A DNA stretch of 64,000 nt from Lama guanicoe (GCA_013239625.1 MU053792.1:197618-261617); one strand, 5' to 3'; shown: positions 3,831-49,394, numbered from the stretch's first letter. Notes: generated from the letters alone by a model not told the origin. A program made the numbers and translations.

Positions 3831-4784
3831 AGAGAAAGACACATCTATGTTCCTCTAACCTTCAATTTCCCTATATTTTCCTTAATAAGGAGAAATCTAG
3901 TTTCTCAGATATTTGTCCCTTGGTCTAATCGAGAGCTAAGCAGAAGATGGTAGATTTTTTTCTACTGAACATTCTGTATCTGGAATTGATTCGGGAGGCC
4001 ACAGTGTATGGCCAGGGCAGCAAAGATTAACTAAAGAGTATCATTTAGTTTAACACAGCACCAACACCATTTATTCACTTAACAAATATTCACTCAGCAC
4101 CTATTATGTGTCAGGTGCCATTTCCATGAGTTCGGGCTATGTTCATGAACAAAGCTGACAAAGATCCATACCTCACTGAGCTTACACTTCAGCAGGGAAA
4201 GCTATAATAAATAAATGAATGTTATCAAATGATTGAAAGTGACAATTGCTAAAGAAAAAAGAAAGTGGGCAGCAGTGTAAAGCGGCTGGGGATGCTGAAA
4301 CAGGGACTGGGACAGATGAGGGAATTTTGCCATATTAAGTAAGATAGATGGATAGATGGGCAAATAAGATGCTGCAGAAGTGAACAGTTTATTCTGCACT
4401 TGCAGCCAGAAGTAAGACAGAAACCGCATAAGGCTAGTAGATAGAGAACAAGTGACTTGCCCTTCTCCCAGGTACGCATTTAAACTCAGCCATTTCTTGG
4501 GGTTGAAGTGACGGCCCGTTAAAACCTTTGCCTGCATTTGCGTTTTCTCAGTGAGACCATCAGCCGGGTCGTCAGTCCTGTTCACAGTGAGGTTTGCTTC
4601 GTCCCTTAATCTTCGTAACTCACCCCTATTTAACACATTATTTTCCATCAAGTCAGCAAATATGCGACCCAGCACATTCCTTGCAATCGACTTCACCACG
4701 TTGACATAATCTTTTTGGCTCTGTAAGAATGATAGGATTTTAGATATGGACAGGGGCTTAGATAGCAAATTAAGAAAAACAAAT

Positions 4785-21982: not shown

Positions 21983-22081
21983 TCAATTGCCAGGAAAGAG
22001 GTAGAAATATCTTGTCATAGACAGTCGTTCAATGGTGGGCATCTGGGCTTTAACATTCGGTTTTTCAAATGACTGTTGTAC
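21983..22081 (-). CDS. CASP4: CASP4 exon 8 (to stop)
   Basis: [32 protein letters not shown]; a gtaagt donor follows 5 nt after TGA. Confidence 0.96.
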
Positions 22082-25000
22082 CTAGAGACAAAAAGAGGTT
22101 CTGGATGACACATACTTCGTATGCACTCTCAGGAAACGTTCTGCACAATGAGCCAGAAAATTTTTGGAATGAAAGATGTTCCTAATATTGATGGAACCAA
22201 GCTCATGGACGTTCTAACTCCCTGTCACTGCCACCTTACCTATTAGAAGTGACACTGAATGTCAGAATATGTTCTTTATCTCAGAATGGATGCACTTTAT
22301 GCCTAATCCAATCTTTTCCAACTGCATTTCCTCTACTTTCCATATCTGATGACTGATTATCCATTGGTGTCCATTCTTGATAACTGGACCTCAAAGATTC
22401 TCTCTCTTCGACCTCCAGCAAGGCTTACTTGTCAACTCAAAAAGGCTTAAGCCCCAGGATTTTGTCCTTAAGGCCTGAACAATGAACAATTTTCACATCC
22501 CCACCACCATGCTGACCTTGGAAATCTTTTGCCATAGACTGATCAGTAAGATCCTACTTACCCTAGATCCACTGTTTCCAATATTTTCCTAAGAATTCCC
22601 TTGAAATTACAATGTCTAAATACTATTTATCCAATAGGACTAAGTTCCTACTCACAGAGACCCTGACTTCTGTTACAGTGTAATCTTCTCCAACTCACTT
22701 AAGGTACATCCCTCCTTTCCCACGGGAGTGCTACTCTTCTCTATGGGTTTAGTTTAAGAATAAACACCCTTCCCCACGTTCTTAATACTAATCCCCTCCT
22801 CTCTAAAAAAGAGAGAGGGCATCTACCCATTCATTCATGCATTGACTTAGTCAATGAATATTAATTCCCATGTGGCGGCATATTGTGGTGTTGAACAAAT
22901 CCCTGCTTCATGAAACTTGCATTCAAGTGAGTAAATGCAGGTAAAAAACAAACAAACAGAGTATATATTGGGTGGGTGGTGGTAAAAGCCATGGAGGAAG
23001 ATGAACTAGGAAGGAAGGGGGAGGTAAGGGATGTCCTGAGTTGGGGCAGGAGAAGCAAGTCTTTCCTTCTGGACCACTCCATTCAAAACATGTTTTCTCC
23101 TGTATCCTCTTGCACGTGTCCTGGGTCTTTTTCTTCATGGCTCCTATCACAATCTGCATCACACATTTTTTGTTGCTGTTGATCTACTTGTTCAGTATCC
23201 ATCTCTCACAAGCATGTTGGTTCTACACAGCCTTAGGTCACATATGTCTAATTTAACCCTGTGTGACTGGGATCAAAGCCATTACCAATAGACCACCCAA
23301 TATATATTTATTTCATAAATAAATCAATGAAACTTAATTCAAGATACTTCCAATTCTTTGAATTTTAAGGACTTATAGTCCATGACATACAAGTTCATAT
23401 GTTATAATATTTTGTTCTATTTTGATCTTCTGCTGTGGGGCATTGACATCATTTTTTTCTTCCTAAATCAGAATTTGAACACCTGTATTACAGAAACTGG
23501 GTACAACTCTTCTGTTTGCCTTACAAAGTCTGTTACTTTCACCTGAAAGGTGAATGATAGTAGAGCCATCCTGAACAAAGTAATTGATTAGAAGAGGAAA
23601 GAGAAGCTTACCTTCCTGAATACTTCCTCTAGGTGACAGCGCCAAGCGTATTTTTGGAAGCATGTGATGAGTCGTGTAATGAAGAGAGAACCCTTTGTGA
23701 TATCTCTCCAGGACACATTATCTATGAAGATAAGGAGTGATAAGCCTTGAGTTGTGGCCTTCACCATTATTTTTTCCACTTTTTTTTTTCTCTTTTTAAG
23801 CATAGCTTGGGAATTTTCTTGACATGTTTAGGGGAAGAATCTTCCATGAACTCAATTTCCATGAGAACGTTCCATGAACTAAAGGGGCAGCTCACCAAAA
23901 CTGCAGAACATTACATAGTGATTGCATTGTATTTTGGGGATTGACTTTCTAGTATGTCACTAATATTTATTCACTTTGCTCTGAAAGGAGGCTTGAGAGA
24001 TAACTGTAATTACCTCATTTTACAGAGGAAGGAATAGGAGCTCAGAAGGATTAAGAAATTCCCCATGTTCACACAAGCAGTTGTTTACAGATTGCATATC
24101 ATGCTGTCTTTTGCAACACAGTAAACAAAATAAAAGGACAGGTCTAGACTAAACTTTTGGAGGGGAGGAATGTATTTTTGGCATAGATAGTGGTAATGGT
24201 TTCACAGGTATGTACTTATCTCCAAACTCATTAACATATATATATATTAAAAACATACAGCTTTTTATATATTATTTATACCTTTATAAAGTGGTAAAAG
24301 GACTTAAAATAAAATTTGCAAGTTAGAAACACTCCAATGTAAGTCTTCTTAAGATGATTACCTAGAGGTCAAGGACTAAGCACTGCTCCCTGTTATCAGG
24401 TCTAATACCCCCGTTGTATCATTTTCTTCCTCTTTTTAAGAGCATCTCCCTTCTTGCTGACACTCTATGACACTACTCTAACTGGCATCCAGATAGGAAA
24501 TACGGTAAAAAAAGATGCCTTATAGATGACAATTTTTCAGAAAGAACAGTCAGTCCCTAGGTCCATACAAATTCTACTCAAAACCTTAAATGAAGTTAAC
24601 TGACAACTGATCATTTGTTTTTAACTATTGTGATGGTGAAGGGGTTTCCTTGTATTCAGTTGTTCTAATGTTTGCTATACCTTTGGCTCTAAAGTGCAAC
24701 CAACGTATAATCAAAGTCAATTTTTAAAAGTGGGAAGAAAAGTAGAATATTTTGATAGCACTCAAAATTGTTACTAAATTGTTGCTGCACTGAGACTATC
24801 TTGATTTTCCAGAATCAAGCAGGGGTAGCTTCAGACCCACAGATCACTGTCGGCAACTGAGAGACACACGTACGTGGGGTTGAGGAGCAGAAAGCAATGA
24901 AGTCCTTCTCCACATGCGTCTTGTAAACGGCATCTTCCTCCAGGTTGTCAAGAGGCTCTGAAGAGCTGTCTGTCAAGCATGCTGGAGGGGCGTCACTGAC

Positions 25001-28000
25001 CCACAATTCCCCACGATTTGCTGTAGAGACATCAACATTCTGTGCATTGTGCCTCCCTCAGCGTGATTATTACAACTGTCTACCTCATTCTTTTACAATG
25101 TTTATTCTAACTAGTTTCATACACACACACACACACACGCGCGCGTGGTTGCATCTCCACCCCACCCGCATCTTGCCTCTCTCTAGTGCTGTTGAGCAAT
25201 GTGCCAATTCATAGTGACGGCGCCATGTCAGTAAATAGTGGCAGTGTGGTAAAAGAACCCACTTGCCAAGAATAACAAAGGAGTTAAAGCCTTATCTGCA
25301 TAGTCTCAGAGCATAGTTATCACTTTATAGCTGAATTATTTCTGCTTTTCCTCTTTGAACGCTGCACCGAAAAGTGAAAAGGCAACTGGGAGTCAGAAAA
25401 AAAAAAAAAAAGAAAGAAAGAAAAGAAAAGAAAGAAAAATTTAACTGCAACCCCAAGTTCCCTCATCTCCCTACTCACTTCCCTTTCAATAATGTATGAG
25501 GAAAAAACAAAAAAAAACAGTGCTGCTGTTGCATAATAGCCCCACTTTCAAATGAAATTCTTTTCAAGCCAGAGATCGTCAAAATGTCTGTAAAACATTT
25601 ACAAGTTTACAAGTAAAGCTGTCAATAAAAGAACTTCATTCCAAGGTCAGCCTATTTGTGTTTAACTTTGATTTGAGGATTCTGGTCTCCTTCACCACTT
25701 ACCTTGGATTAAATTGAGTGGAAATTTCTCAGCTGTCAAGACAAATTCTTATGATACCAGCCCCCTGGATGGAATTTCCTAATAATTCAGTTCAGATTTT
25801 TTTTTTTTTTTGCACTGGATGGGGTCTAAGATGGTTTCTCCTAGAAATGAAATCTACGTTACAGTCCTCTGTGTGAGTACCTTTATGGCCTCTGAACTTT
25901 TCATCTCAGGACTCACCACCTCTGCAGGCCTGGACAATGATGACCTTGGGTTTGTCCTTCAGACTGAGGCAGTTGTGGTTGTTGAAGATGCGGAAGATGG
26001 TATCGTAAGGCAGCACATCTGGTTTCTCATCACTGTGCGTCTTTCCGCAGATGCCATCCAGGATGCCGTGAGACATGAGCACCAAGAACATGCTGTCTGA
26101 AGACTTGTGCTCTGGGCGGGCAGCAAACCTCCGCAGCACTGATTCCATGTCCTGAAAAAGCCCACAGAGTCTTACTGCAGCAGGACAAGCATTAAAACTA
26201 ACCCGACCTCCTCCTCTTTACCATGAGCAGTGTCAGAGACGTCTGTGAGTTCCAATCATGGTGCGTCACGCAGTGGTCGCTCTTTCATTTCTCTTTCTAT
26301 AATGGATCAGTGGGTTCCACTTTCTGTTGTTGATGACATGATGTAGCCTGTCCTTTTGATATATTTTTACCATTGCTTGTTGTCATTAATATATTTTCCC
26401 TTCCATCTCTGTTTTTTCTCTCAATACTTAATAAGAACCTTGAATAATAAATGTATCATAATCACCTCCCTTCTAAAACACTTCCCACTGTACTTAGAAT
26501 AAAATAAAACTTCTGACATATGCATACTTCTTCCTGCTGCCTACCTTCCTCCTTCTCTAGGCTCTAGTCACACTGGTTTTTCTGTACTTTTCACATGCTA
26601 GTTTCATGTGCAGTTCACACTTCTCACTTGTAGTCATCCCTGCTTGGAATGTATTTCATTCATGTCTTTCCAGAGCTAGCTTGTCTCTGATAGTCATATG
26701 ACAGCTCCTATATTATCTCCTCAAATCTGTTCTCACTGGCCATCTCATCAAATGCTATTACTTCCCGCACACCGGTTTGTTCTTACGTTTCCTTTTTTCC
26801 TTTTCACTTGCTTTTCACTTTCTGTTCAATCTTAGAGACATATAGACACATCAAATCTCTGAAATTTTCTGTTTTGTTATAGTTTGATCATCCCTGCCAA
26901 GTGAACCTACATCAGTGTGACCTAGGACCCTTCAGTCTCATTTACAAACCCATCCCCAACGCCAGGAATTGCCCCTGGGACACAGTCAGGACTCAGTATT
27001 TCCATGGGGAGTACACGCCTGGTAACATTCATTATTCTGGAGTTTTCTGGGGAACACTGGGGCTGAATCTCAGTCATCCCACGTTAGAACTAAGAACTGT
27101 GTGGGTACACATGCCAATCACTCTTCATCCAGCTTTAAGAAATTGAGGACATTTGGAGCTGTATGGAGACAGAGATATCACCTCTCCTAATAATCTTGAT
27201 TTCTAGCACACATTTACACACTTAGACACACACACACACACACACACACTCATACAGAAGTGAGATTGACGGTGGTTAAAGTATTTGCTTAACATTACAA
27301 AGCATCCTTGTTAGTAAGAAGCCATGTGTTGAAGTTACGTGTGTTTGGGGTGCACAAGGTGCCCTCACCTTGGCCGTGAGCCTCTCTTCCACATCCACAC
27401 AGTAGCCAAGGCCCTCAAGCAGCCCCTTCATTCCTATGATGTCAAGGGCAGCCCCGTCCCTGACAGGAAGATGCTCAAACTCTGTATTGCATAGAATGAG
27501 AGCCAGACGGGTTCGGTCCTTCCTCTCCTTTATTGGATAGATCTGCGGGAAGTGGATATGCAGTGAGTTTCCTTTCTCTCTTAGACCTTCATACACCAAC
27601 CGCTGTTGCTTTTAAGGACTCACGTAGCTGCCTCTCCTCTCCTGTACTAGAAGACACCGCCTTCCCCTCCTCTGGTAAGGGATTGAGTGGACAACGGAAA
27701 GGAGGGTATATTGGAAGTGGATTACTTTTCAGGAGCCCAGACAGGATCCAGATCACATTTGTGATGGCTACGCAAGAATCCAGAAGAGACTAGAACAGCT
27801 CCTACCCTTGCCTTCTCCTCTTTCCTCTCCATTTAGTCAAAACTTTCTCAACACTCAAGGTTCAGATCAAATTTAATGAAACCCATGAGACATTTGCCAC
27901 TGGACCCAGCTGAAAATAAATACACCAATATTCTCTGCCTTGAGGGACATTATTATTTTGGTACCATTTTTAACACATCAACTTCTAATGCTTTGCAGTC

Positions 28001-31000
28001 TTTAATTTTTTTCATTAGAATGCAAACAATTACTACTCAGCCACATTATCTTATAAATATTTTGATTCTATGACTACAGCTAGAATTCTAATAATAGTCC
28101 CAAATATATATATGAAAACAAATAAATGAAAAAAAAAAGAGAGAGAGAGAGAGAGATCTGCATTTTATCATAAGATTAGAAGAGGATTGGAATCTGGGTG
28201 AGACCATGTGATTTCCTACTGTTCAAAGCATCTATGAAACAGATTACCCCTGTCCCCAGCCCTGCCACTCTGTAATTAGTGCTTTAAGAAATCGTATAAT
28301 TAGTGAGAACACTCGTTTTCTTTTTCTCTATTTAGTGTACAGAGCACAGCACCTCTCCAGCCCTTTCTTTGTACAGTTTCAGGAATTCCTCATGAGGGCA
28401 AAGCTTCAGGGTACCTTCTTCTGCCTCATCCGGTCCAGCCTCAATTTCTGCAGGAGCTGCAAGACACATCACACAATATGAATTGTGCTATCTGTCCCGG
28501 CGACCCTGTTATCACCTAAGAAAACTGCCAGAGAGGAGAAATTCTGGGAAAAAGGGTTTTAACAAGTAGGGGTCATGGTTGTAGCTGACTTCTAGTATGA
28601 GCAGATAGATGTATTTTGACAGAGAAAGAGGGAGAAATCCCTGTTAGGGAAAGCAGATCCACGCAAAAATTGCAGTAATAGATTCTCATAGTTCTGAGGA
28701 AAACACCTAAATAAATTTGGGCCCAAATTTAGCACTTCTGTACTCAGCAAAACTAGTCTAATTTTTCCAGTTGTTTTATGTGGACTTTCTATTGTCTCCG
28801 AGCAGGAGGACCTTGAGCAAAGATTCATCAGAGTGACATCTATTAGAAATACTGTTGAGTCACACGTACAGTTTTAAATTTTCTAGTATCCATATTAAGA
28901 AAAATAGATACATTCAATTAATTTGATGACACATTTTGTTTAACATCATATACCCAGAATATTATCATCTCACCATGTGTTGCTAGCCACAATTCAAGCA
29001 CTTAAAAGCCACCTGTGCCCAGTAGCTCTCGTGTTGGATAGCGTAACATCCCGAGTGAACTCCTAATTCACACAACATACACAAAATTCTCAGCCCATCT
29101 TTTTCAATGGGAGGAAATAATTTTTGTTTCTGACTCATCCTGACCTAATCTCTTGAGAAATGAAATATCTGAAATGGTTTCGTTTTACTTGAGTTTGTGC
29201 AAGCGACTGGGAAAGTCCAGAGTCTTCCTGCGGAGAAGGAAGAAAGAGGAAACCCCAAACAGAAATCAGAAGAGAAGTTTCCTAAGACCTAAAGTAACCA
29301 GATTTTGGTCTATTAAAGGAATAAACCTTTATGTTGTTACCTGAACCAACCACTACATTGTCTGATTTTATTTTATTTAAATTAGAAAAGCAATATTATC
29401 CTGTATAAAATTTTCAGGTTTTAAATGTTATACTTTTTTTTCCTACTTCACTCATTTGTTTCCATCAATTTTTGAATAATTTTTTCTGATAAATGTCTTT
29501 CTAAAAAGTATGCTAAAAATCTAAGCTCTGGGGATGCGGCAAATGGTAAGTCTTTAAGAGCACCAAACTTTCTGAACATTTACTTTTGTAGATTAAGCAG
29601 TGATACATACTCTCCCTTCAGACTCCAGAACATCCTTCCAATATGGAGATGTCTGAGGTCCCGGCGTAGTCCCTGGTCAGAGGGTATGTTTTGTTATCGA
29701 AAGTCTCCTGTTTCCAGGTCATTTACAGGCTTGGCGAACTCTCCAATTTAACAAATGTCATCTCCTCCTGACCATGATGTGTTTATGTGTAGATAGAGAA
29801 TTTACAGACAAAACTGAGAATTAGGATGTCTATCTTCTATCTAATAGTAAAATTAGCATGAAAAAAGTCCTTTCGTTACAACATAATAAATATTAGAGTG
29901 CAGTTCTGATGAGCTCGACAGCACAGCAAAAAGAAGTAAGAAAATGAGGAGTTTAGATAAAGAAATTAATATCTAAGTTGTATCTGTTACCTAATGAAAT
30001 GCTTAGGAAGCTCTTTAAACTGAAACAACAATGATGAGACTGATACTAGATAAGACAAGGCCGTCTCCCTTGGGAGGCAGAATTCGAGTGATCATCTCTT
30101 GAATATTTTTGTGCATATTGAATAAACAGACTGCTTATTAAAATAAACAAATAGATAGCTTGCATTCTTCCCATCCCCAACTCGGTCTCCTTAGCACTGT
30201 ACTAGAAAGCCTCAGAATTGTATACATTATCGAGAGGACTGGCCAGGGCTTTTACGTAAGTGTGCCCAGCTTCCTGGCCTGCTGGGCCAGTGTTCTCTGG
30301 GTGGCCTGGGAGTCCTCTGGAGATTCCACGTAAAGATAGAGCCCCGGGGGGCTGCTGGATGCTTCATGAAAGGGCCCATACCTGCCTCCTGCCTGCCGCA
30401 GACTGCTGAGGCGATAGGTTATTTCAGTTTAAGGCCCATTGTGATTCCTGGAGTTGCTAAAATCATTTTGAAGTTCCCATTAATTCAGTTCTGATTCCTA
30501 CTTGCTGAATTATCCCTGATTTTGGTTTTAAATCCAAATTAGTTTCATCCCACATCAAGTTTAAGAGACAGTAATGAACCTGCACAAGGACCAACCTGGC
30601 CGCATCGCAGACATCTATCAGACGAGCAGGTGCTTCCTCCATAGAGAAGGGCTTGTTGGAAAAGCACACTTGAGCAAGTGAGGTCTCTATAGTTATGTTG
30701 CATTTTGTTCATTATTGCTTATTATTATTGATGAACTCTAGAATTCAAGACTGGGGTTTCAGGTTAAACTCTATAGCGAATCGAGTCCATCATGGGTGAA
30801 CTTGGGTCTGAGGCTATTACAGACTCTAATAATGTTTATAATTCAATCCAAGTCAAAAGTTTTGAAAGATTTCAGTATATTGGACACCTGATGGATGTTC
30901 TCTTGATCACATTTTGTAACTCACACAAATAAGTAAGCACTGGAAAGATCTAAATATTATAAGCCAAATAATAATTATGGTAACTAATCTTCATTGGGTT

Positions 31001-34000
31001 CATGTTTTCCATTTGTCTTTTCATTCTGTATTTATTGTGTGTCTGCGCTGTGCTTGGCACTCTGCTAAGAGCTATGACTCCTTGGTGAAGACACAGTTGT
31101 GCTCCGGATTGGGAAACTCAGTGGACTATAGTCCTGTCTAATGAGATGGAAAGGCGATAAAAGTGGGATAGATTTGATAAGGGAATCGAGTGTTTCATTT
31201 CCTATATCCTAGTTCTGTGAAGCCAGGGGAATATTCAGGTGGAACTGTTGACATGTGTAGCTACAGCTAAAGGTATTTAGAGCTCAAAGGAGAGTTCTGA
31301 ATGAGAGCTAAAATCTTGGGAATTGCTAGCCTACGCCTGCCATTTACAACCCTAGCCTTACAAAGATGGTGACAAAGTTTCTGAAGGTGTCCCCATGTCA
31401 CAGATGCTCATGCTGATGCCTAGGGAGCGTTGAGCAACTTGGATGAAGTCACATAGTGTCGAGTGACAGACATCTGATTTCAGGTTCAGGTACCCCTTAC
31501 TGCAAAGTGTCTGCAGCCAGCTATTACGATGAGTTGAGTCCTATGAAGGACTCAGCTTCTCAACTAATTGGAAACTGGATTCCTTCCCACAAATGACAAG
31601 GCAGCCTCTAATAAAATCAGAGATAGGTTTAGTGAAAATTATACGTTAGTAATGAAAGGAGGAGGGGATTATGGAGAACAGTGGAGTGGCTGTAGAGCCA
31701 AGTATATTCTGAAAAATTTAAGACATTCCTTGTAAATGAGTCCAGTCTTACCTTCTACACTGGTGGCATTTTTGTCTGTGTTAAGGAAGGTTTGGAGTAA
31801 GATTTGACCTGCCTCATGGTGTCTCTGTCGTATAGAATCCACCAAGAATTTTAAATCGTAAACCTTTTTCTTCTCTGCTTCCTCCAATTTCACGTCATTT
31901 TTTTCCATGAAGTCCTCTACAAAGCCGGTGAGGAACTCTTTGCCCGCTGACTCCAGAAACTTAAGTGGGTTTTTTTTGTGTTTGTGTTCTGTCAGAAATA
32001 CAAAATTTCCTTTGATTTGATCTTGTCTCAGTAAAAATTCAGAATTGAAAATAATCTGATGACTCACTTTTCAATGTTGGTAGATTAATATGACACCAGG
32101 TTAATTTATTACCCTCTGGATAATCTGAATTTCTGTAGGGGAGTATTGAAGTCAAATTAAGAAGCATTTTGTCGTAATACCACAGATATTATTTGAACAG
32201 ATAGTGCATGGGAAGGCAGGATGAATCATCAATTCTTAATTAAATCTCTAAAGATAGTTATACAGTTCATCTAGATGTAAAAATAATCTTGACACAAAAC
32301 GACATATTCTAAAAAATAACCAAAATGTGACAAGACATTGAACAAGAACTTTGGCCCAGAAACACCAGCCTCATTGCTCATGTTATGGTGAAATATTCTC
32401 CCAATAAATGTTTATTAAGCAACTATTATGAGAAAGAAACATGGAAATTACAAATCATAACGAAAACGTTACCAAATATCAGTCTGTTTGATAAGAGCTA
32501 ACATGTCTTACACATTTACGACTAAAAAAGAAATACATACAAAGTAATGTGAATCATTATTATTATTGTCACTTTTGTTATTATTTACAAGTCTCTGCAC
32601 AAAATAGTTCACAAATATTAATATGCTGGACCCTCACAATAATTCAATGTGATGGTTAATATTTTCCTTATTTTAAAGCTCATTTAAATTAAATGTCCAG
32701 ATCACACAAATTAGGATTCAGATCGTGCTCTTCCACCATATTCTATGGAGTTAACCATAGCACAGCTTCAGTAATAATAGTTAATATTCATCGACTCCCC
32801 ATTGGTCTCAAGTGCTTCGCACAAATCGTCTCACCAAAATTCATTTCAAGCTCCGTATAACAGATAGACCAATATTTCTGTGATATAGTTAAGGAAACAG
32901 ACACAGAGAAGTTAGTTAAGCATTTCATCCAGATTATGTGAATACTGCACATAGTTTAGTAAGGGGGCGGGAAGGAATTCAAACTCAGAATGCAGAGTCC
33001 CCTCTTTCAAACTACATTGCATGCGACTTGGTGAAGAGTTACCTGAGAGAATGAAAAGTGGTCCAGGGACTCAGAAAAGACTCGGCTAATTCTTGCAGGT
33101 GACATCACAAAAGACCTCTTAGAAAAGGTGACAAAAAACACTGGTCTTACAACAGAGTATAGAGCTAGAACAGAGGGTTTGAAGACTTACAGACAACATG
33201 CAGGTTAGTGTCTAAAGCATTCACTTTATCCGAGTCCTGGGTTTCTATTTTATTGATTTCTGCCCTCAACAAGGGTGAGTGTTGACTGAATGAGTGGTAT
33301 GGGGAGAAATATGGTAAAAACAATAAAAGCAAAGAGTTTTGGCTTCAGATCCTCTTATTTACATGTTCTCATGGCTTCAATTATTCACTTTAAAATAATA
33401 AATTATTCCCAGGTTTATAGATTCAGCCCCAAGGTGGATCCTAAAATTGAGGCTCATGTATCCATCCCTTCTCAGTGTTCCCCACACTCGTTAAACTCAT
33501 TTTGTAAAAATCCGAACTGCTCATTTTTTCATCCATCTGCTGTATTCCCTATGCTGGCAAATGATACCTTACCGTTAAGTACACCAACACAGCAAAAGCT
33601 GGTGCTGCTAAACCTCTTCTTCCTTCTTTATATCTAATTTTCCATCTCACTTCAAATTATCTGCAAAATACTTGCAGAATCTGACCACTTCTCTCATTTC
33701 TAACTGCTCGTTACTCCAGTTTACGCCAACATCCTTTCTTTCTTAATGACGCTAAGAATCTGATAAATACACTCCTGTCCCCTTCGAAGCCAGTCTTTAC
33801 AATGAAGCAGACTCAGGGTTCTGAAATCTAGTTTTAACCATGAGATGTCTCAGCTTAATCTAATCGAGGTCTTCTCATTCAGCCCCATCCTTTCCTACTA
33901 TACCGACCTTGCTCACTACATTTTAAACACTTTGCCCTTCTTTCAGCTTCTAGAAAGCCTAATAAAGGCTCCTAGGTGTGCAGTTTCCCACACACAACAT

Positions 34001-35776
34001 TCCTTTCATTCCCAGCTGCTGACTGTTCACGTCTCAGATGACACGCCACTTCCTTTAGGGAATTGCCGTGATGCTGAAGGCAGAGTGTGAGAGGTCTGTG
34101 CCCACAGGGAAGCTAGTTTCTCCCTAAGCTAGCACGTTTTCCCTTATTTGTGTTAATTAGTTAGCAATGGCAACCAAACTCATGAGTTTATGTTTATCGG
34201 GTCTCTTTACATGGTTTTGTCTACTGTTTTTCAGTCTCTCAAATCTGTTATCTAATGATGCCCTGATTTCAATTCAATAACCACGGAGGTCATCCTGCCT
34301 GGCTGAAGACGCAGTCGTGAGTGTGGATTTAATTCATTACTCCCCAGCCAAATGCTGTATTAGTATCATGAAGAAGATAAGAAAACAGTCAATCCTTACA
34401 TCATTTTAGGAGCTTAAATTAAATGTGTAAGGTGAGACATAAACCCTGGAAAGAATTCTACTACAGGGAAAATGAAAGAAATAAAGAACCACAACAGAAA
34501 GGAAGTATGAGTGGAGGGAATACAGAAAATATTTTTTTTTAATGAAGCTGAAATCATGCTTCAGAAGGGTTAATGGAAAGTGAGTAAATGTATTTTGAAA
34601 GGTAAGAAAATTGTCTGACAAGTTTAGACTTCTTTTTAAACGGCAATACAGAGCCGTTGCATGGTCCTAATTAAGAAGATTGCACTAGTAACTACTAGAA
34701 TGTGAGAAATGAAAGATAGCCAACTGGTCATCATGCCTAATTATGCCAATCTGAAGGCAAACCCAGACCAGCTACATAAGAATTATCTATAGATCTTGAA
34801 AGGCTACGAACGCTTATGGTCTGTTTATGGTTGGGTAATCTGGGATTAGGGAAGGGGAAATAATCCATTTTGTTTCGTCTGTTTTCGGTTTTGGTTTTTT
34901 GTTAATGGAGGTGCCGGGGATTGAACCCAGGACCCTGATGCACGCTAAGCATGTGCTCTACCACTGAGCTCTACCCACCCTCTAAGTTTGTTTAATGTCT
35001 ACAGATTATCCAGATACGTTTTAAAATTTAGAAACCACTGATCTAGTTGACCCTTTTCCTTTTCAAATGAATCAGATGAAGCCAGAGAAGTGCTGTGACA
35101 TGCCTGAATACTAGCTGCATACACAGCTCATGACTCCATTCCTAATGCTTTTCAGCTTCTATCTGTAAGCTGTGCAACCTGAAAGCAGCATGCAGGATGG
35201 ATTGGAGCTTAAATCCCGGAGCAAGGGAGACCAGTTTAAAAACCGTGATAGCAGTCCAAGAAGTACTGCACCAGAGCACTTAGCACCAGGGCTGGAAAGG
35301 AGGGGAAAAAAAGGAGTTATTTTATAAAGCCCAAGAGTACAATTCAGTAGAGGAGATGGCAAGGGAGGTGGGAATTCCAAGGCTCACTGATCTGATTTGG
35401 GGAACAATGTTGATGGAATCAAGAGGAAGCTGAGACTTCAGAGTACATTTAGACATTTTCAGAGTTTTCTCAAACACAAATAACTTACTCTGTTTGTCTT
35501 TACCAACCCCCTACTTTGATTCCCAGAAGCTGCAAAAAAGGAATTAACTTCCTCCTGGCTCTGAGATATCCGGAGACCATACTGTCTTAAGTGTCTCTAA
35601 GGTGGTGTCCCCCAGTTCAAGCTACCCAGAGCTAAGAGGGAGACAGATTCAGCTTGCATGGGGTTGGCTCACTTCCCTTTTGACATCTCTGCCTGTTACA
35701 GAGCAATGGATAAAGTGTCTTCTGAGACCCAAGTTCCTGACCCCTGGCGAGAAAAGGACCCCTACTTACCAGCCAT
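21983..35776 (-). CDS. CASP4: Caspase-4 (caspase-11/bovine caspase-13 orthologue; non-canonical inflammasome LPS sensor), 370 aa, 8 coding exons
   Basis: Exons 35770-35776, 31752-31988, 28353-28456, 27369-27542, 25917-26151, 24874-25020, 23612-23721, 21983-22081 (7+237+104+174+235+147+110+99=1113 nt), all GT-AG and in frame. Encodes [54 protein letters not shown] and YFYLFPGN*. Confidence 0.95.
23612..23721 (-). CDS. CASP4: CASP4 exon 7
   Basis: 110 nt; [37 protein letters not shown]. Confidence 0.95.
24874..25020 (-). CDS. CASP4: CASP4 exon 6 (interdomain linker)
   Basis: 147 nt; [49 protein letters not shown]; donor gtacgt. Confidence 0.94.
25917..26151 (-). CDS. CASP4: CASP4 exon 5 (catalytic His and Cys)
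   Basis: 235 nt; [29 protein letters not shown]...IIVQACRG. Confidence 0.97.
27369..27542 (-). CDS. CASP4: CASP4 exon 4
   Basis: 174 nt; [58 protein letters not shown]. Confidence 0.96.
28353..28456 (-). CDS. CASP4: CASP4 exon 3
   Basis: 104 nt; [35 protein letters not shown]. Confidence 0.93.
28825..29046. mobile_element. MER3/MER33-like hAT MITE in CASP4 intron 2
   Basis: ttttaaattttctagta...gctagccacaattcaagcactt...agtagctctcgtgttggatagc. Confidence 0.55.
31752..31988 (-). CDS. CASP4: CASP4 exon 2 (CARD, shortened)
   Basis: tctgacag|AACAC...GTAGAAG|gtaaga; 237 nt; [79 protein letters not shown]. Confidence 0.93.
34868..34980 (-). mobile_element. tRNA(Ala)-derived SINE (Vic-1 type, camelid) in CASP4 intron 1
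   Basis: Minus strand reads gggtgggtagagctcagtggtagagcacatgcttagcgtgcatcagggtcctgggttcaatccccggcacctcca plus an A-rich tail; Pol III A and B boxes present. Confidence 0.8.
35770..35776 (-). CDS. CASP4: CASP4 exon 1 (ATGGCTG)
   Basis: ggctgttacctATGGCTG|gtaagt; leader resembles human CASP4. Confidence 0.9.
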
Positions 35777-35825: not shown

Positions 35826-35930
35826 GAAAATGAAAGTCACTGAACATTTCCTTAAGGCTGGGAAAGTGTTGCTCAGGATTTCTGGGCTCACTGTCGGGAA
35901 GTCCCCTGTAGTCAGCAAGTGGATTTTCCA
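35826..35930. promoter_or_regulatory. CASP4 proximal promoter: IRF-E (GAAAATGAAAGT, 35826-35837), NF-kB site (GGGGACTTCCC on minus strand, 35896-35906), second kB-like GGATTTTCC (~35921-35929)
   Basis: Motifs 50-150 nt upstream of the ATG; consistent with known NF-kB/interferon induction of CASP4/Casp11. Confidence 0.7.

Positions 35931-37622: not shown

Positions 37623-49394
<11,772 letters not shown>

Follow-up and report, generated by a model that had tools for sequence, protein, structure and literature searches.

How the CARD of caspase-4/11 converts lipid binding to oligomerisation is an unresolved problem, and a structure of the LPS complex has never been obtained according to a review (PMC13570427). 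In the guanaco the CARD of this sensor has changed on a conserved protease. A sequence-only reading of a 64,000-nt stretch of the Lama guanicoe genome (GCA_013239625.1 MU053792.1:197618-261617, hereafter the window) had claimed that CASP4 lost six CARD residues in frame, and that lipid A recognition or oligomerisation may be altered or lost. Our analysis indicates that the deletion is real and lineage-wide, and that it makes this known LPS receptor a variant that seems to be undescribed and whose functional effect is predicted from sequence.

The window holds a complete camelid CASP4 gene

Six-frame motif and tblastn searches showed that the window is the camelid CASP1–CASP4–CASP12 cluster, entirely on the minus strand, with two complete inflammatory caspase genes and one further CARD exon (Table 1). 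This exon, which we take to be CASP12-like from its position, fixes the gene order, and CASP4 lies between it and CASP1 on the same strand, where the orthologue is expected. Because the encoded protein shares 96.5% identity with the 'caspase-13' of Camelus dromedarius and C. bactrianus (record P0002) and 73-82% with the caspase-4s of other mammals, the gene is, on sequence identity, camelid CASP4, the single camelid orthologue of caspase-4/11/13 as far as the window extends. Its 13 differences from Camelus are in keeping with a South American camelid. Caspase-4 structures were also the top-ranked matches of the profile A2.

Table 1 Positions of the caspase features in the window, counted from its first nucleotide
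Feature	Position	Strand	Remarks
CASP12-like CARD exon, downstream of CASP4	4499..4720	-	label presumed from position
CASP4	21983-35776	-	8 coding exons
CASP4 exon 8	21983..22081	-	p10 end, stop codon
CASP4 exon 7	23612..23721	-	p10, SWR
CASP4 exon 6	24874..25020	-	W267, D270, interdomain linker, D289 and V291 equivalents
CASP4 exon 5	25917..26151	-	SHG and QACRG catalytic motifs; R241H in the guanaco window
CASP4 exon 4	27369..27542	-	p20
CASP4 exon 3	28353..28456	-	linker and p20 start
CASP4 exon 2	31752..31988	-	CARD exon, 237 nt, phase 1-1, AG/GT ends
F76 equivalent (F70 in guanaco)	31786..31788	-	retained; acyl-binding residue in PMC11887843
Deletion junction Y-D-L-K-F-L	31843..31860	-	gap between 31849 and 31848 in the alignment
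Codons D34 and V35	31891..31896	-	V34, L35 in most mammals; pocket residues in PMC12757046
K19	31939..31941	-	retained; K in 87/87 non-camelid rows covering the position
CASP4 coding exon 1	35770..35776	-	7 nt, start codon, phase-1 intron
NF-kB-like (35896-35905) and IRF-like (35826-35837) sites	35826..35905	-	promoter-proximal; consensus pattern match only
CASP1, upstream neighbour of CASP4	37623..49394	-	intact 383-aa ORF, 8 coding exons, full-length CARD

The coding exons of 7, 237, 104, 174, 235, 147, 110 and 99 nt, all joined across GT-AG introns, make a 1113-nt ORF that encodes 370 aa uninterrupted by stops. Equivalents of H210, C258, R152, Q256, R314, D270 and D289, which comprise the catalytic His/Cys, the substrate-binding residues and the Asp sites of autocleavage, are all kept, and so are those of W267 and V291. 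With these residues, splice sites and ORF, the earlier statement that the catalytic exons are intact was borne out, and the protease part is intact and conserved at the sequence level, its activity being predicted. The claimed NF-kB/IRF promoter was likewise found again, as one NF-kB-consensus and one IRF-like site upstream of exon 1, both being pattern matches with no chance control.

Some smaller features of the gene may be mentioned here. The length of exon 2 is a multiple of three and its phase is 1-1, so that skipping it would yield an in-frame, CARD-less caspase-4; a search of the window gave no duplicate or alternative CARD exon and no GT[AG]AG-type donor inside exon 2. Common to guanaco and Camelus are a 2-residue deletion in the CARD-p20 linker (exon 3) and a 1-residue insertion in the interdomain linker (exon 6). 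The Camelus ferus record P0001 ends at 355 aa, 15 residues before the p10 end, which may be a genuine frameshift or an assembly error of that genome. In intron 1 lies a short tRNA-like SINE with an A-rich tail (34905-34981, minus strand), which presumably resembles a camelid SINE family; ARAGORN gave no tRNA gene at this place.

Six CARD residues are missing in all camelids sampled

Exon 2, read from 31988 to 31752 between AG and GT ends, is 237 nt long, as had been reported. Its codons 46-54 (31860-31834) encode Y-D-L-K-F-L-V-D-S, with three residues between YD and the L/M-V/A-D-S motif, against nine in the proteins of sheep, pig, whale, bat and ape, and the net in-frame loss of six residues is thereby confirmed. 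The 255-nt exon 2 given for human and cattle agrees at the protein level only, through the six additional residues. The missing residues are about 50-55 in human numbering, K53 included, with breakpoints that are approximate and set by protein alignment; the one lysine adjoining the gap is K49 or K53 depending on the breakpoint. The gap is bordered by A48L and V56F, which may belong to the same event.

In the alignment A1 the six-column gap was present in all 3 camelid rows and in none of the 34 non-camelid rows. A wider sample was collected by a profile search (best 120 of 571 matches); 127 proteins plus the window protein gave 92 CASP4-type CARD rows, 37 proteins yielding none. Of these rows 89 are non-camelid CASP4/5/11-type CARDs, which include isoforms and close relatives and are not independent. 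Positions 45-60 are gap-free in 88 of the 89, the sole exception being a Chlorocebus CASP5 model with several gaps, and position 53 is basic in every one (K in 87, R in 2). Position 48, L in camelids, is A in 83/89. The idea that the deletion might be shared widely among laurasiatherians was also checked: it is absent from the others in the sample and fixed in both camelid branches sampled. The camelid CARD breaks 4 of 12 otherwise invariant columns, which is no higher a number than in zebra, bonobo and elephant (4 of 16 each).

The second change is at the pocket pair V34/L35, which is replaced by D34/V35 in 3/3 camelid rows. The earlier description of a broken NVL motif holds in that V34D is unusual, position 34 being hydrophobic in 87/89 non-camelid rows with divergent lemur and loris paralogues as the exceptions; NVL itself, however, is no fixed motif (N in 46/89 and D in 35/89 at position 33), and camelids keep N33. 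Similarly, the deletion was said to overlap a basic KRW cluster. It does remove K53, but KRW is the mouse triad and not a general one, since residues 53-55 are K-A-R in artiodactyls and K-V-R in apes, and K53 alone is conserved. K19 is retained as stated, and L11, F21/L22, the 21-26 hydrophobic patch (25/26 included) and F76 are kept in all three camelid rows as well.

The shortened domain is clearly homologous to CASP4-type CARDs, matching the caspase-11 CARD structure 6KXG with an E value of 6.6e-9 and scoring 98 bits against a CASP4-type CARD profile, but it stays below the Pfam CARD cut-off, with 17.8 bits against 23.9. Net charge shows no shift from sheep, pig or hippo. Mean hydrophobicity over seven pocket positions places camelids among the lowest five of 79 rows, and that of the helix-1 patch is ordinary (58th lowest of 90). 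For the idea that A48L and V56F compensate by forming a new amphipathic helix, the hydrophobic moment was computed: it is 0.30-0.35 in camelids, close to the median of 0.28 (range 0.07-0.47) for 82 further rows in which the corresponding columns were masked.

Could the gap be an assembly or annotation artefact? The records of Camelus ferus, C. dromedarius and C. bactrianus, which are independent protein records, carry the same gap together with D34-V35, and these rule out an assembly error as its cause. In addition, 14 of 24 listed public runs (7 studies, 3 organism labels) contain all 55 sampled words of 31600-32150; 10 of the 14 are flagged as a possible source of the window DNA, while 4, from 2 studies, are not. 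Six rows of this listing that come from RNA or presumed RNA runs, with shares of 0.07-0.24, were left out of the evidence. We regard the probability of an artefact as negligible.

Among the primates of the wider sample, P0066 (Eulemur) and P0090 (Nycticebus) are second CASP4-like paralogues that are polar at 34-35 and have a 2-residue gap in helix 4; judging from sequence, another natural loss of the LPS pocket is possible in these strepsirrhines.

The changed positions coincide with those of published mutants

Two AlphaFold2 models were built from one set of 37 sequences, headed by sheep in one case and by dromedary in the other. The sheep CARD model has helices at 10-31, 39-47, 50-63 and 67-77, with a low-to-moderate pLDDT of 57-70 over residues 21-60. 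Since its fourth helix begins at residue 50, the deleted segment would be the first six residues of helix 4, in agreement with the earlier placement; helix 4 of 6KXG, as PMC13570427 describes it, corresponds to this sheep helix. The dromedary CARD came out as a weak model with one fused helix at 39-70 and pLDDT 26-44, and the paired contrast says only that the usual helix 3/4 hinge was not recovered in the camelid. A fold search with the sheep model gave only protease matches among the best 50 listed.

Mouse and human CARD numbering coincide in this region (alignment row P0054). In PMC12757046 the acyl pocket comprises residues 4-37 and helix 5, and the mutants L11E, V21E/L22E, V34E/L35E and F76E/F77E are impaired in oligomerisation, in LPS binding and in pyroptosis. 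According to the same source K53/R54/W55 and K62-64 lie beyond the pocket and close to the oligomer interface; it reports that K53E/R54E/W55A almost abolishes mouse CARD oligomers, and describes human CARD cross-links that involve K49, K53 and K64. The role in LPS binding that had been assigned to the 53-55 triad is thereby adjusted. Because this paper places the triad at the oligomerisation interface, the deletion, by which the K53-centred surface at the predicted start of helix 4 is absent, would affect clustering above all and lipid A binding less, and V34D would be the change that touches the acyl pocket. The proposal of altered or lost lipid A recognition or oligomerisation is thus upheld in that the changed positions matter in published mutants, and shifts toward clustering. 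All the functional steps considered here are extrapolated from mutants of the mouse and human proteins.

Other published results also bear on the CARD. PMC11887843 finds K19, K28 and F76 important, and reports that caspase-11 still signals when a fish CARD takes the place of its residues 39-90. Without two residues at 44-45 such a chimeric CARD signalled as well, but more weakly, and it improved once they were added. PMC13622861 names residues 21-29 as a key oligomer-stabilising patch, and PMC13570427 regards the CARD as a mostly unstructured module that resembles a molten globule on LPS.

The CARD changed on the camelid stem and was then apparently kept

Branch lengths were estimated under JTT+G on a fixed 13-taxon tree with an assumed topology, gap columns being dropped. 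On the camelid stem they were 0.341 substitutions per site for the CARD and 0.052 for the protease, where the tree-wide ratio is 2.3. With counts rounded to 24 and 13 the excess has an odds ratio of 3.1 and p 0.0013, or 0.03 after multiplication by 23 branches, in an approximate branch test with 15 branch entries tested; p is 0.004 when the two gap-flanking changes are left out. An excess in the CARD was likewise seen on a branch of the bat Hipposideros (p 0.014). Relative-rate tests exceeded a chi2 of 3.84 in 2/12 triplets for the CARD and 0/12 for the protease.

After the split from Camelus the picture is different. Guanaco and Camelus CASP4 differ at 3/82 CARD positions, 5/254 protease positions and 5/34 linker positions (against the linkers, p 0.047 for the CARD and 0.003 for the protease). 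In CASP1 the CARD exon differs at 7/90 positions; the overall divergence is 13/370 for CASP4 and 10/351 for CASP1. In these sequences the CARD changed in one burst on the camelid stem and then evolved at a background rate, with the protease conserved. Both parts look constrained since the Camelus split, and because few differences have arisen in the shortened CARD since then it is not visibly decaying, the counts being small in each case.

These data bear on the possibility that the deletion inactivated the sensor and that the gene is drifting to loss, a stop codon merely having yet to arise. Among the 13 CASP4 differences, 10 of the 11 that could be polarised lie on the guanaco branch (p 0.012), including I141L and R241H in exons 4-5 and S99A, all three at columns invariant in 11 non-camelid outgroups, and some relaxation in the guanaco lineage is possible. 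Polarisation of CASP1 as a control gave 2 vs 3 with 5 unclear, and its contrast with CASP4 has p 0.06. The guanaco gene, however, keeps its ORF, splice sites and catalytic residues, two Camelus species have a recorded full-length 370-aa protein, protease differences are few relative to the linkers, divergence is like that of CASP1, and the Camelus branch carries only one change. We therefore consider drift to loss very improbable.

An LPS sensor that may cluster differently

What would such a CARD do? The reading we prefer, held at a little below even confidence, is that it still binds lipid and clusters weakly or with altered selectivity. This fits best because the CARD changed in one burst and both domains were then conserved, and because the docking residues were kept whereas the oligomer surface and one wall of the pocket were changed. 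The sharing of the gap with Camelus and its rarity elsewhere, the Pfam score below the cut-off, the hinge missing from the dromedary model and the weaker signalling of the chimera without two residues at 44-45 (PMC11887843) also speak for it. The camelid stem would have seen a single remodelling of the CARD, which was retained afterwards; the N-terminal half (K19, L11, F21/L22 and the 21-26 face) and F76 would still dock the domain on anionic long-chain lipids. Without the 50-55 surface, and with an acidic residue at position 34 of the pocket, it would be less prone to form the large LPS-driven oligomers, about 8-mers, that protease dimerisation would need. Its threshold would be raised or its lipid selectivity shifted, so that it would fire only where LPS is locally dense, as on GBP-coated bacteria, or in response to another set of lipids, and gasdermin D would still be cleaved once caspase-4 had clustered. 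Camelid cells may in that case respond less, or differently, to cytosolic bacteria.

The natural changes coincide with positions at which mouse mutants impair oligomerisation (PMC12757046). The published mutants are, however, charge reversals or double mutants, neither V34D alone nor this deletion, and a molten-globule-like CARD may tolerate indels (PMC13570427), both of which count against the preferred reading, as do the unshifted net charge, the number of broken invariant columns, which is about that of zebra, bonobo or elephant, the Hipposideros excess, the few relative-rate tests above the threshold and the low confidence of the AlphaFold models. The same plasticity, together with the fact that the CARD is the only known activation route of a still-conserved protease, makes near-normal function a serious rival: the shortened CARD would sense LPS about as well as other artiodactyl caspase-4s, the domain being flexible and its essential N-terminal residues intact. 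The kept lipid-contact residues with their ordinary helix-1 patch, the background rate of the CARD and conservation of the protease since the Camelus split, the retained signalling of the fish chimera (PMC11887843) and the naming of residues 21-29 as the key oligomer-stabilising patch (PMC13622861) agree with this. Against it, camelids lost a segment that is elsewhere free of gaps and carries a basic residue in 89/89 rows, and gained a polar residue in the pocket, the corresponding mouse mutants lose oligomerisation (PMC12757046), and the stem burst is specific to the CARD with no match in the protease. On this evidence a merely tolerated change seems rather unlikely to us, though well worth weighing.

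On one branch V34D altered the pocket and the 50-55 loss the oligomer interface, and this coincidence of two separate hits could also mean that the CARD does not cluster on LPS at all and that the protease is kept through another activator, such as another lipid, a protein scaffold or an upstream protease; camelids would then lack a non-canonical inflammasome by a route unlike the carnivore CASP1/4 fusion. No replacement sensor was seen: exon 2 is the only CASP4/5-type CARD exon of the window, with no second one between CASP1 and the CASP12-like exon, and protein searches gave no second Camelus CASP4-type CARD. Precedents exist in two papers. Cytosolic LPS caused no lysis of dog cells (PMC8411117), and in one assay, in which 16/22 mammalian CARDs were protected by self lipid, some showed no LPS protection (PMC11887843), although human caspase-4 itself was hard to score there. 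Against this reading, no alternative activator is known, and 3/3 camelid rows retain K19 and the N-terminal hydrophobic face, features peculiar to CARDs that bind lipid. Complete LPS blindness is in our judgement improbable. Because K19, L11, F21/L22, the 21-26 patch and F76 are kept and the CARD differs from Camelus at so few positions, LPS sensing that is 'lost' is less likely than 'altered', as far as sequence indicates.

A more speculative extension, which we also doubt, is that cytosolic LPS sensing was rewired or switched off on the camelid stem, the shortened CARD and the protease then being selected for a ligand or scaffold other than hexa-acylated LPS. If true, lipid binding would be naturally separated from LPS-driven oligomerisation, and camelids would join Carnivora as a second lineage of mammals that has no standard non-canonical inflammasome.

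Relation to known caspases and novelty

Compared with other artiodactyl caspase-4s (bovine 'caspase-13', sheep P0005, pig P0007), the camelid gene has the same locus position, exon layout and protease. Overall identity to sheep and pig is 79-82% (p20 83-87%, p10 95-97%) with K19 and F76 kept, whereas the CARD is six residues shorter, has no K53, carries D34/V35/L48 and is only 60-66% identical. The mouse caspase-11 CARD (6KXG) mutants K53E/R54E/W55A and V34E/L35E are altered at the same positions, but in camelids a deletion takes the place of the charge reversal, V34D occurs singly beside L35V, which is conservative, and the change is lineage-fixed and apparently under constraint.

The closest precedent is the carnivoran CASP1/4 fusion, which likewise gave a whole mammalian lineage an altered non-canonical LPS sensor (PMC8411117 and PMC11117641) by a different lesion. 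Carnivores fused two genes and retain a full-length CASP4-type CARD exon, whereas camelids have separate, intact CASP1 and CASP4 and changed the CASP4 CARD itself. Human caspase-5 isoforms with an altered or missing CARD also show CARD-length variation on an intact protease; according to PMC13570427 these arise by splicing from a duplicate gene that coexists with a normal CASP4, whereas in camelids the only CASP4-type gene of the cluster is changed.

Camelid caspase-4 proteins are already in public databases under ordinary names. Judged by titles and abstract openings, with subscription papers mostly outside this scope, no paper on camelid caspase-4 was found, and the bovine caspase-13 literature surveyed in the same way gave nothing on it. 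The main texts of PMC11887843, PMC13426443, PMC11117641 and PMC8411117, as far as available, contain neither 'camel' nor 'alpaca'; the main text and one supplement of PMC11887843 name no camelid, the species of its 22-CARD panel being given in a figure.

A natural allele without the proposed interface and with an altered pocket, in which K19, helix 1 and F76 are kept, offers a test of models of the CARD. Normal signalling by the camelid CARD would show that the 50-55 segment is dispensable, and if signalling were lost, camelids would offer a naturally occurring model for a blunted endotoxin alarm. Either result would be relevant to camelid veterinary immunology, where responses to Gram-negative bacteria are usually extrapolated from mice and cattle.

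Neighbouring caspase genes

The CARD frame of the presumed CASP12-like exon is open in phase 0 only, from the nearest acceptor at 4720, and in phase 1, the phase of CASP1 and CASP4, it meets a stop at codon 22. Neither an exon-1-like motif nor a protease exon of this gene was found within the window, and it is probably a pseudogene. In CASP1 of the window the CARD exon is spliced straight to a 116-nt exon, giving 383 aa where the human chain has 404 aa. The same junction occurs in the C. ferus model P0045, and a short CASP1 linker exon may have been lost in camelids; P0045 is an older fusion model in which CASP1 is joined to CASP4 exons 4-6 without the CASP4 CARD.
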